This document shows positions 27,701-30,700 of a stretch of 64,000 nucleotides of DNA, piece by piece; the stretch's first letter is position 1, and every line of letters begins with the position of its first letter. The notes below the pieces were generated by a model. The model did not search any database. It was given only the letters and a program-made list of their open reading frames with translations, and had not been told where the DNA came from. The DNA is taken from the NCBI GenBank assembly GCA_030636025.1, contig DAOVXQ010000005.1:12700-76699 (forward strand). Reading direction: 5' to 3'. This stretch comes from an archaeon. GTDB taxonomy: Archaea; Nanobdellota; Nanobdellia; Pacearchaeales; GW2011-AR1. The position numbers were made by a program, and so were the translations under genes.

Positions 27701-30700
27701 CAGTCAAACTAGGATTAGTAACATCAACCTCAAAACTCTTAAACTCACTCACAACATTCCCCGCAGTATCAGAAGTATAAACATCAAAAGTATGCGACCC
27801 CTCTGTCAAACCAGCCTCACTAAACTCCAACTTCGTCGCATTATAAATTGCCAAGATTTCATCAGATGTCAAAGACTTATTGAAAATCATTACCTCGTCG
27901 ATTGAGCCGTTGAATGGATAGATTGTCCCTCCATCATTATCTGAACCGATTGCAAATATTTGAGAAGTACAACTTACTAAACCTCCTCCAAAACTCTCAC
28001 TTTGTATTTCACTACCATCAAGATAAATTTTATGAGTTGTGCTATTGTAGGTTCCTACTATATGATACCACTGCCCTGTTTGTATTGAAGTTTGAACAAC
28101 ATTAACACTTGTACCATTTGAAACAACAAACAATGCGTCACCGCTTGTTACCATCATATAAAAACCAGTATTAGAACAGTGGTCATTAAGAAAACTTCCA
28201 CCCGCCGTCCATGTAGGTATAGAATCAGCTTTTATCCAAGCAGTTACTGAAATGCTTCCTGTTATATTCAAACTATCATCATTCCCACAATCAACATAAT
28301 CCCCCACCCCATCAAACTCAAATCCCTTCCCCATCTTCCCATTATCCACCTGCTTAGCATCCCCCTCGACACTCCCATTATTTGAATTCCCACTCCACAC
28401 ACCAAACCAAGGCCCGGCAGGGTCATCCCTTCGGGGACCCCGACTAACCAAAACAATATCATTCCCGACATCAACATCGTAAATCTTCCCCGAATAATCA
28501 ACCTTCTCAATCCCCAAAACCCTAACAGGCTCATTATTCTCATTTAAGAAATAAACATCTGGCTCCGCAGAGTCATGCCCATTTAGGGCCTCTCCTTGTT
28601 CAAACCGAGAGTAAGTTTCTGTGACCTGCTCTAAAGAGAAATCAGATAAATCTTTTGAACCAAAAGATTTATAAGTCTCAACATAATTATGTTCACATAC
28701 AGAATCACCTAAAGGATTAAAAATGGCAACAGTAACATTATCAATTTCAGAAGAATTAAAATCTAAGATGGACAAACATCCTAAAATTAAATGGTCTGAA
28801 ATATTTAGAAGAATGATATCCTCAAAAGTAGAACAATTAAAAAGATTAGAAGGGAGCAAACTATAAATGGCATCTGTAACTTTTTCAGTTCCTAACGAGG
28901 TTAAACTTGAAATGAAAGAACTATCTTGGGTAAACTGGTCAGAACTTGCAAGACAAGAAGTTATCAAACAAGATGAAAAAGCAGAATTATTTGAAGAACT
29001 TGAAGAACTAACAAAAGACAGTAAATTAACAGATGAAGATTGTTTAAAATTTGCTAAACTTGTCAAAGAAAGATTTGCAAAAGAGTCAAGAGGCAGATAA
29101 ATGAAACTAGTCATCGACGCTAACATCGCATTCTCACTATTAAAAAAAGGTTCATTCACAAGAAAATTATCACACAAACACTCATTAGATTTATATTCAC
29201 ATAAATTTATCTTAGAGGAATTAGAAGAACATTCTAATGAACTTTGCGAATTACTCAAAATTTCTGAAGATAAATTTGAAAGAATAAAAGAAATATTATC
29301 AAAATTAGTTAATTTAAAAATCAAAGTTTCCCCACAACAATTAAATTGGGCAAACTCGTTATTATCAGACCCCGACGATAAACAATATTTAGCATTATCA
29401 CTAAAACTAAATTGCCCGCTCTGGTCAGAAGACTCGCATTTCAAAGAACAATCAATTATCGAAGTATTCACAACATCTGAACTTAAGGATTTCTTAGAAG
29501 AATAAACCTTATGCTCAGGGCTAACAACCAAATCCCCCTCTGAAGTCTCAATTTTATACATCTCGCCCCTATAATCATAAATCTGTTTTTCAAATGGCTC
29601 TTGATATTCCGCCTCGCCAGTCTCAGAATTCAAAGTCATAACCATCTCATCATCTTCTAATTCACTAAACAACTTCCACCCCTCATCAGTCAAAATCTTT
29701 GTCTCATCATCATAACAATGCATATAATCAACAACATCCCCACTCCCATTAACATCATCCATTCTCCACCAGCTAACTAAAGAACTGTCCAAATTAGGAA
29801 CAATAAACCCGCTCCCACTCTCAGAAGAAGAAACATTAATCAAAACACTCGAACTATTATAAGATGCATTCAACGGACTATTAACCGTCAGCGTCGGCAA
29901 AGTCACATCCACACTCACATTATAACTCGTCTGAGAAGCAACATTCCCCCCAACATCTTGACTATAAAACGTAACATCATTTGTGCCTTCTGGTATATTT
30001 ATTGAAGTATTCAAATATTGGCTCGAAGTATTTGCATAAAGTCCTTGTATTTCTTCTGCACTCAAACTTCTGTTAAAAATCATAACGTCGTCGATGGTGC
30101 CGTTGAAATCTCTATTCAGTCCCAAATCCTTCATACCAATAAGGAGATTAGCAGTAGTAGTGAAGATATCAATAGATCTATTGGCTTGAAAATCATAAGA
30201 TGCTTCTGAACCATCAATGTATATATGTAATAATGTATCTCCATTTTTATCCCAAGTCCCAATTATATTATGCCACACATTATGGCTAATAGTTGTACTA
30301 CTATCTGCTTGAATAAAAGTTGTTGAACTATTACCCAAAATAAAATCTATAGTTGTATAATCAATCTGAAGTCCATACTGAATAGTATTAGGATAACCAT
30401 TTAATTTTTTACCAACAATATAATACATATCTCCAACAGGACCAATTGGATAGACCCACGCAGAAATTGTAATCGCATCAGTTATATTCAACCTCTCCCC
30501 ATTCCCACAATCAACCCAATCCCCCGCCCCATCAAACTCAAACCCTTTCCCCATCTTCCCTGCATCAGTCTGAACCGCATTCCCCTCAACACTCCCATTA
30601 TTCCTCCCCATATAATCAAACACCGTCGAGGAATTCGCATCATCCATTCTCCACCAACTCACCAAACCATAATCATTAAACACCGAAACATTATTACTAT

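Follow-up and report, generated by a model that had tools for sequence, protein, structure and literature searches.

An intein in a DPANN archaeal surface protein that probably carries an antisense toxin-antitoxin operon in place of an endonuclease

Introduction

What fills the middle of a large intein that has no recognizable endonuclease domain, and how might such an intein persist? This question is raised by a 64,000-nucleotide (nt) stretch of DNA from a Pacearchaeales archaeon (contig DAOVXQ010000005.1, positions 12,700 to 76,699), which derives from a metagenome scaffold (ENA ERZ23498475 scaffold_120) and is referred to here as the window. A single giant gene in the window holds two Hint-type insertions, termed intein 1 and intein 2 below, and an earlier note made from the letters of the sequence had described the second of these as an intein-like element. 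Our whole analysis is computational. It leads us to the view, to which we assign a probability of about 0.8, that intein 2 is a class-1-type intein carrying an antisense type II toxin-antitoxin (TA) operon where an endonuclease would be expected.

Results

Two insertions at the same conserved loop of LamG modules

The host gene and its two insertions are laid out as follows.

24741 to 37328, minus strand: host gene, one 12.6-kb open reading frame (ORF) of 4195 amino acids (aa), encoding a surface protein that contains two inteins
28386 to 29717, minus strand: intein 2, 444 aa, host residues 2538-2981, from Cys1 to the terminal Asn
28383 to 28385, minus strand: the +1 Ser (codon 28385-28383), C-extein nucleophile of intein 2
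31566 to 33509, minus strand: intein 1, the sister copy, 648 aa, host residues 1274-1921, with two cargo slots

The host protein starts with a hydrophobic signal or transmembrane segment, continues through several LamG (Laminin_G_3) repeats and ends in a C-terminal transmembrane anchor. Re-reading the window showed that the positions given in the earlier note for the Cys1 codon (29717-29715), the terminal Asn codon (28388-28386) and the +1 Ser are all exact. Intein 2 lies in frame within the DxxGxxNG loop, a conserved lead-in to a LamG module, with the flanks DYMH/CYDDETKILTDEGWKLF...GVWSGN/SNNGSVEG, where the slashes mark the junctions. Intein 1 is found at the homologous site of another LamG module (FSGH/CYDNE...VWSGN/SNNGTV). 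In three sister modules, at around residues 2243, 3265 and 3559, the loop is uninterrupted and reads DYMGRNNGSVEG; the DNA of an intein-less site runs ...GATTATATGGGNAGNAATAATGG... When the flanks are joined in silico, Pfam recovers a full-length Laminin_G_3 domain (E=6e-31), and the splice junction falls about 25 residues upstream of the start of the Pfam model, still within the conserved loop. With three uninterrupted sister modules and flanks that rejoin in register, the proposal that the insertion sits exactly at a conserved LamG-module site is borne out.

A Hint domain with the residues of a class-1 intein

Relatives of intein 2 were collected by a search with the conserved C-terminal Hint block, a query independent of the middle of the insert, in one genome per species. 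This search returned 66 loci, nearly all from DPANN archaea; together with loci fetched via protein matches they form the set of 78 inteins used below, in which some of the taxon labels come from binned metagenome-assembled genomes. Individual loci are identified by L numbers. The two halves of the Hint domain of intein 2, scored with hidden Markov models (HMMs) of the family and with AlphaFold2's predicted local distance difference test score (pLDDT), are

29496 to 29717, minus strand: N-terminal Hint lobe with blocks A and B (CYDDETKILTDEGWKLF...SPEHKVYSS), N-block HMM E=8e-40, pLDDT 83-89
28386 to 28643, minus strand: C-terminal Hint lobe with block F (GKIYDVDVGNDIVLV), a 15-aa extra loop and block G (VWSGN), C-block HMM E=5e-30

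Blocks A (CYDDETKIL), B (SPEHKVY), F (GKIYDVDVGNDIVLV) and G (VWSGN) follow each other in the canonical order and the penultimate residue is Gly, both as originally reported. In block B the Thr of the TxxH motif is replaced by Ser and the His is kept; this SxxH form is present in 72 of the 78 related inteins. The closing motif W[SC]GN is found in 61 of the 78, and in every one of these 61 the +1 residue is Ser.

Searches with the single sequence gave weak matches. Pfam Intein_splicing (PF14890) scores E=0.009 with the full insert and 0.0018 with the middle removed, corresponding to 16-20 bits against a cut-off of 35.8, and phmmer against the Protein Data Bank (PDB) gave E of about 0.1. For this reason a family profile and a fold prediction were needed. 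A profile built from eight family members matches the solved inteins Mja KlbA (2jmz; E=7.6e-8), PI-PkoII (2.9e-5) and AceL NrdHF (3.9e-4). An AlphaFold2 model of the joined N- and C-terminal parts (165 aa) has the HINT fold with a mean pLDDT of 90.5 and a predicted TM score of 0.84, and a Foldseek search of the PDB with E<1e-3 returned 48 matches, all of them inteins, bacterial intein-like (BIL) domains or hedgehog Hint domains (TM scores 0.6-0.78). Of the two computational checks proposed in the earlier note, the structure with the middle removed gave a clear positive and the profile search a divided answer, being positive for the family profile against PDB inteins and below the cut-off for the Pfam model. 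Since the family profile and AlphaFold2/Foldseek are both positive, the outcome that had been named as fatal to an intein, namely the lack of a Hint profile match or of a HINT fold, is not what we find, and profile, fold, catalytic residues and paralogues all support an intein-like Hint insertion.

Pfam detects no endonuclease domain in any frame of the inserts, and NCBIfam finds none among the cargo described below. P0021, a database relative that shares block A (CYDDETEVLTDEGWKKW), sits in ThyX as a canonical intein and has its LAGLIDADG domain in frame.

The Hint domain could instead be a non-splicing BIL-like element or an inert insertion, which is either retained or merely cleaves the chain, with the host frame kept open to avoid truncation. 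Such an explanation would suit the secreted repeat protein that serves as host, which is where BIL domains are found, and it draws on the penultimate Gly, on the sub-threshold Intein_splicing score and on the presence of BIL2 and a C. thermocellum BIL domain among the top Foldseek matches. It sits poorly with the retention of Cys1, the block-B His, the terminal Asn and the +1 Ser (61 of 61) across diverged copies, with an insertion in a conserved loop that paralogous modules possess free of any insert and whose flanks rejoin in register, and with the canonical nature of the ThyX intein that shares block A. We consider a BIL-like or inert element unlikely. The opinion that the host is atypical is justified; the suggestion that the element is closer to BIL domains is less well supported, as the +1 Ser, the terminal Asn and the conserved site fit an intein better. 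With its conserved +1 Ser and terminal Asn, and an insertion that replaces nothing at a conserved site, the element appears to be an intein rather than a BIL domain, which would be expected to lack a +1 nucleophile or a junction competent for ligation and to lie in a variable region, and its Cys1, block-B His, terminal Asn and +1 Ser mark it as a candidate of class-1 type, in which splicing is predicted from sequence and model.

Between blocks F and G, at about 28398-28440, intein 2 has a 15-residue GC-rich extra loop (SRGPRRDDPAGPWFG) that intein 1 does not have. Among the relatives, 19 of 61 have the WxGN motif 25 residues or more after the C-block (e.g. L004 and L006), which marks a third insertion point between blocks F and G.

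A toxin-antitoxin operon on the opposite strand

The middle of intein 2 had been regarded as a deletable stretch of about 260 residues. The mini-intein is indeed modelled with a HINT fold in its absence, but the stretch is not empty: the sequence evidence indicates that the middle ~280 residues are the antisense of a real operon of three plus-strand genes, which lies between blocks B and F, where homing endonucleases are canonically inserted. The cargo genes of the two inteins are

28723 to 28866, plus strand: cargo gene 1, RHH/VapB-like, 47 aa (NCBIfam VapB E=3e-8)
28867 to 29100, plus strand: cargo gene 2, RHH/VapB-like antitoxin, 77 aa (NCBIfam VapB E=7e-6; RHH_12 in L074)
29101 to 29505, plus strand: cargo gene 3, PIN_2 toxin, 134 aa (Pfam PF10130 E=3.2e-19)
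31882 to 32529, plus strand: intein 1 cargo A, a VapB-like gene (31882-32115) followed by a PIN_2 gene (32116-32529; PIN E=5e-27)
32750 to 33320, plus strand: intein 1 cargo B, located in the N-terminal slot and made up of an antitoxin-like ORF (32785-33057) followed by a YafQ/RelE-like toxin gene (33054-33320)

In intein 2 the three ORFs abut in one frame (28723-29505). Their homologues in L074 are annotated RHH_12, RHH_12 and PIN_2, that of cargo gene 1 being likewise 47 aa long, with a similar N-terminal sequence and a precomputed PF26688 RHH_12 assignment. The acidic catalytic residues D6, E40 and D93 of the PIN protein are invariant and a fourth acidic position is Asp or Glu. An antitoxin gene lies directly upstream of the PIN gene in one operon, the arrangement expected of VapBC. 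The TAA stop codon of the PIN gene (29503-29505) is the antisense of the Val-Tyr codons of block B, here and in most related loci. In cargo B of intein 1 the antitoxin-like and toxin ORFs overlap by ATGA, and the putative YafQ/RelE-like toxin matches TIGR00053 (E=7.8e-12, at 45.7 bits against a cut-off of 87) and Pfam ParE_toxin (E=0.011). GC skew changes sign inside the cargo regions. Elsewhere, 84 homologues of the PIN protein with 38-87% identity are called as PIN_2 proteins. No defence-system model in PADLOC matches the cargo. We take the cargo to be type II TA operons, with a toxin activity that is predicted from these assignments.

The relatives show that the slot accepts more than one kind of cargo. 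PIN_2 modules are present in 41 cases (and in 4 more together with DUF433), RelE-type modules in 11, DUF433 in 9, DUF2283 in 2 and other cargo in 3, while 6 inteins are short or empty. Two copies (L049 and L070) are true mini-inteins of 138 aa. The PIN cargo genes are antisense in 46 of 46 instances and never sense. The relatives without PIN_2 have other antisense modules, across which the host frame is still open: YafQ/RelE-type operons, DUF433 (E=9e-23) with DUF5615/Mut7-C (E=4e-11), DUF2283 (E=8e-11) with a barnase/RelE-like nuclease, and a PF01850 PIN. At least four TA families are thus represented.

This variety bears on the idea that the RHH and PIN proteins form a surrogate homing endonuclease, the RHH protein recognizing DNA and the PIN protein cleaving it. 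The location in the endonuclease slot and the antisense orientation are as in known non-canonical inteins (10.1101/2025.01.02.630785), and the presence of the intein at homologous positions of two LamG modules within a single protein, like the recurrence of the same SNNGT insertion site in 21 other loci, would be a natural outcome of homing. The same slot, however, holds YafQ/RelE-type, DUF433+DUF5615 and DUF2283-type modules, families annotated as mRNA interferases or of TA type, and a cassette with 79% DNA identity exists free-standing without Hint flanks. These two findings make a homing-nuclease role less likely, and the antitoxin-first order, the ATGA overlap and the promoter palindrome described below are typical of an autoregulated TA operon. 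We regard a surrogate endonuclease as improbable, more so than a BIL-like element, and prefer a TA operon.

A host frame that stays open across the cargo

For the host protein to be made as one chain, its ribosomes would have to read through the antisense of the cargo. The segment in question is

28656 to 29489, minus strand: host-frame linker, intein residues 77-354, the stop-free antisense translation of the cargo operon

This linker consists of 23% Ser, 12% Leu and 10% Asn and is also rich in Phe and Cys. In an AlphaFold2 model of the full 445-residue insert, built from a 16-row alignment, residues 77-354 have a pLDDT of about 25 and no secondary structure, alongside Hint parts at 83-89, and the linker is accordingly predicted to be disordered. 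A Pfam search of the host-frame middle returned only the spanning Intein_splicing alignment and an insignificant match to TseH (E=0.11).

Could the open frame be an accident of composition, purine-rich cargo genes giving antisense frames that are poor in stop codons? This AT-rich window does contain long antisense ORFs, which reach 301 codons in one reference gene. We resampled the cargo genes with their proteins held fixed and synonymous codons drawn from the window's own codon usage. The probabilities that the host frame stays open are 0.81, 0.92, 0.042, 0.30, 0.28, 0.16 and 0.0034 for the seven cargo genes, so that several single genes (those at 0.16-0.92) would be unremarkable, but the joint probability is about 1.5e-6. 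The lowest value belongs to the RelE-like gene, which is exactly antisense to the host frame and must therefore avoid TTA, CTA and TCA codons; TTA is the commonest Leu codon in the window. Across the 78 related inteins the host frame has no stop in 19,003 codons between the N- and C-blocks, the other two frames of the same strand having 1386 and 2366 stops, and antisense stop density in ordinary genes of the same loci is 3.8-7.0% per codon. Two further intein copies are broken by frameshifts (L061 and L066). The free-standing three-gene cassette, which has 79% DNA identity to window positions 28658-29498 and no Hint flanks, contains 12-31 antisense stops. The openness holds for all three relative frames, since among 171 cargo ORFs the third codon positions coincide with those of the host in 138, exact antisense register accounts for 27 and the third relative frame for 6. 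The joint probability, the absence of stops in the family and the stops in the free-standing cassette effectively refute a compositional accident.

It is equally hard to argue that the host-frame middle is a real functional domain of which the plus-strand ORFs are mere shadows, even though it is the host frame that gene callers annotate and although the linker is recognizably conserved between loci: a search with the shadow-linker sequence alone found 46 cluster representatives (E<=1e-3) among 1.84 billion, many over at least 200 uninterrupted residues. It is the plus-strand ORFs that match the curated PIN_2, VapB and YafQ models, and the linker is Ser/Leu/Asn-biased, modelled at a pLDDT of about 25 and devoid of a Pfam domain of its own. 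Moreover, divergence among 44 PIN cargo genes, counted over pairs with at least 75% identity, falls in the order third, first, second codon position of the cargo frame (0.384, 0.159 and 0.091), a pattern that is normal for coding sequence when read in the cargo frame and abnormal when read in the host frame. Model matches, pLDDT and codon-position divergence together leave this alternative effectively refuted and, like the compositional one, with hardly any probability. The codon-position signature shows selection at the amino-acid level on the cargo frame. Because the divergence fits the cargo frame and the linker is predicted to be disordered, the host frame is selected only to lack stops, that is, for translatability.

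Long ORFs (160-215 aa) antisense to long genes are also seen on the plus strand elsewhere in the window, which has 32% GC, at 35482-36108, 51486-51986, 52647-53219, 55285-55773 and 56188-56835. The first, which faces the Glu-rich region at the N terminus of the giant protein, has the look of a compositional shadow.

Signals for expression of the cargo

Sequences upstream of the cargo resemble archaeal promoters, with a B recognition element (BRE), a TATA box and, near the start codon, a Shine-Dalgarno (SD)-like element.

28646 to 28674, plus strand: intein 2 cargo promoter, with a palindrome, the BRE-like CAAAAGA and the TATA box TTTATAA (28668-28674)
28680 to 28693 and 28713 to 28716, plus strand: a second palindrome (AACATAATTATGTT) and an SD-like AGGA upstream of the first ATG, read directly from the sequence

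The BRE/TATA-like element CAAAAGATTTATAAG (28661-28675) lies 55 nt upstream of the first ATG, and a perfect 12-nt palindrome (28646-28657 and 28661-28672) overlaps it; this palindrome is a putative operator for autoregulation. Read in the host frame, the promoter DNA gives YKSFGSKDL, and the peptide YKSF is conserved in the host frame because the promoter DNA encodes that stretch. Intein 1 has the equivalent palindrome and TATA box of cargo A at 31803-31831, and for cargo B a TATA-like TTAAATAA (32750-32757) 35 nt upstream of the RelBE-type operon. Of 71 related operons, 59 have TTTAWA 25-75 nt upstream of the first ATG, with two modes of spacing: one at -28/-30, which suggests leaderless transcripts, and one at -52 to -58 combined with a GGAGGT SD-like element before the ATG. 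Of 70 operons only 5, spread over 4 loci, have perfect palindrome arms of at least 11 nt, two of these being the window's own inteins; the TATA-overlapping palindrome was therefore rejected as a feature of the whole family and holds for the window only.

In intein 1, a GC-rich region roughly 100 nt long (33360-33452) separates the stop of the RelE-like gene from the first Hint strand. It folds into two strong hairpins, with a minimum free energy of -47.9 kcal/mol (z=-5.95 on the plus strand, -5.3 on the minus strand), and includes a tandem TGCAGGTTCTCGC repeat. It is unique in the window and has no Rfam match; Rfam finds no RNA family at E<0.1 in window positions 28000-34000. These hairpins could be a terminator or stabilizer for the RelBE-type operon, or a small mobile element.

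Exchange and spread of the cassettes

The related inteins are distributed over about 70 species-level genomes. Comparison of their parts indicates that cargo and Hint domain have separate histories. The Hint cores of L045 (RelE-type cargo) and L065 (PIN_2 cargo) are 89-90% identical, and for 44 of 76 inteins the nearest Hint neighbour has a different type of cargo. Inteins 1 and 2 are themselves mosaic, with a DNA identity of 98% in block F, 81% in the promoter and C-block region and 74% in the N-block; their PIN proteins are only 42% identical. Related inteins appear to have swapped cassettes by recombining through their conserved Hint flanks.

In public annotation the host ORF is called and the cargo stays hidden. 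The PIN genes are called mainly on short contigs, on which the host ORF is truncated.

Other features of the related loci extend this picture of insertion and loss. Two or three cargo-bearing inteins lie nearly back to back in one ORF in L016, L034, L056, L065 and L068 (in L065, for example, at 1506-2534 and 2535-3671), which suggests local spread between adjacent repeat modules. L077 (GCA_043811855.1) contains at 1295-2350 a 352-aa ORF antisense to an RHH/RHH/PIN_2 cassette; it starts with a partial block B (GLVVSEKYKVY), ends just past YKSFG and is accompanied by neither a C-terminal Hint block nor a host protein. It is an apparent intein remnant and may be a recent intermediate of decay.

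Sense-strand tRNA-like genes of 82-85 nt are present in L005 (7330-7411), L011 (779-860), L024 (1017-1101), L004 (6737-6821) and L033 (357-438, 792-873, 2547-2628 and 3831-3912). For those of L005, L011, L024 and L033 the Rfam RF00005 scores are 47-60 bits, which exceeds the gathering threshold, and that of L004 is found by ARAGORN only, which assigns tRNA-Ile (GAT) in L005 and tRNA-Ile (AAT) in L004. The copies in L005, L011, L024 and L004 and the one at 357-438 in L033 lie inside inteins, with the host ORF reading through. These might be genuine genes for tRNAs, or else elements akin to attachment sites at which cassettes integrate. ARAGORN detects no tRNA in the window.

Two further groups of genes in the window were noted. 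At about 37.5-38.2 kb, recognized via L073, a free-standing gene of the DUF2283 family and a small partner ORF lie upstream of a DEAD-box helicase/ERCC4 pair. On the minus strand at 19696-21312 there are three tandem, paralogue-like ORFs of 168-171 aa.

Discussion

In the mechanism that we propose for intein 2, the ribosome would read through the shadow linker of about 280 residues, and the two Hint lobes would fold together as they do in inteins with large endonuclease inserts. The whole insert would then be spliced out to give ...DYMH-SNNGSVEG... and an intact LamG module, while the antisense operon would be transcribed independently. With less certainty, the TA cassette may act as an addiction module that penalizes loss of an intein unable to home, the intein in return offering a site where insertion of a cassette destroys no gene. 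As an alternative to addiction, the intein may simply be a safe insertion site in a compact genome.

Several points weigh against this interpretation. The penultimate residue is Gly (WSGN) throughout the family and not His; many inteins, though not all, have a penultimate His. The Ceu ClpP intein, in which Gly takes its place, reportedly splices poorly in E. coli, and splicing efficiency may be lowered here as well. The Intein_splicing score is under the gathering cut-off, and the giant host ORF is itself predicted from a metagenome scaffold. We found no oligo-T terminator after the toxin gene, and such a terminator is present in 10 of 71 related operons. Production of the precursor could suffer both from a disordered linker of 280 residues and from convergent transcription. 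Splicing, antisense transcription and toxicity are computational predictions, and the addiction role is purely our inference.

More broadly, inteins of DPANN archaea may form a cassette platform in which the endonuclease slot and two further slots take up interchangeable antisense TA operons that are recoded to leave the host ORF open, with sense-strand tRNA-like genes in some. TA function would here replace homing as the means of persistence, making an 'addictive intein'. We offer this wider proposal tentatively and judge it possible but rather less than even in probability. If true, addiction would join homing and domestication as a third way in which inteins are maintained, and it suggests a testable answer to the question of how endonuclease-less inteins persist.

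The cargo would be a new class for inteins, in a slot previously known only for homing endonucleases, whether in frame or, rarely, out of frame or antisense. The loci also present antisense dual coding in cellular genomes that is large (200-300 codons) and evolutionarily replicated (about 70 species-level genomes and at least four cargo families), and which should be useful for testing models of overlapping-gene evolution. As gene callers annotate only the long host ORF, dozens of TA modules are hidden, and database 'proteins' include hundreds of shadow residues.

Comparison with known systems

Inteins with an antisense or out-of-frame homing endonuclease have been described in Synechocystis DnaX and a Chloroflexus SpoVR-like protein (Gorbalenya 1998, NAR 26:1741), in actinobacteriophages, where antisense LAGLIDADG or VSR-like endonucleases leave an unstructured in-frame stretch (10.1101/2025.01.02.630785), and in a dnaX intein with a +2-frame endonuclease (10.64898/2026.09.14.751524). 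The architecture itself is therefore not new, though it is rare. The inteins described here resemble these non-canonical inteins in that the endonuclease slot of a mini-intein accommodates a second gene, on another strand or in another frame, that the host frame is open and that the in-frame product is unstructured; the non-canonical inteins have been suggested to originate from a free-standing element that invaded a mini-intein. They differ in that the cargo is a two- or three-gene type II TA operon with its own archaeal promoter and not an endonuclease, that at least four TA families have been swapped between near-identical Hint cores, that the hosts are DPANN surface proteins and not replication or phage genes, and that a second, N-terminal slot and a third slot between blocks F and G are also used. 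Full-text literature searches found no report of TA genes inside inteins, nor of multi-family cassettes, a DPANN surface-protein host or conservation on this scale.

With canonical archaeal inteins (PI-PkoII, 2cw7; the ThyX intein P0021) the family shares the HINT fold, Cys1, the terminal Asn, a +1 nucleophile and the insertion point, and with P0021 also block A (CYDDETEVLTDEGWKKW). It departs from those of LAGLIDADG type in lacking an endonuclease domain detectable by Pfam, in the penultimate Gly and in its unusual host. BIL domains reportedly occur in secreted or variable proteins, as described by Amitai et al. in 2003. The likeness to them (2lwy, 6tmm) lies in a Hint fold within an extracellular repeat protein (TM scores 0.66-0.78), and the differences in the conserved +1 Ser, the conserved site, the in-register junction and the intein block motifs.

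Type II TA modules of the VapBC, RelBE/YafQ and DUF433-DUF5615 kinds include cassettes that stabilize chromosomal integron arrays and other mobile elements. The operons described here are like known type II modules in their antitoxin-first order, PIN acidic residues, start/stop overlap, promoter palindrome and residence on a selfish or mobile platform. Unlike those modules, they lie wholly inside, and antisense to, a translated ORF, are constrained to leave it free of stops, and have a stop codon embedded in block B of the intein.

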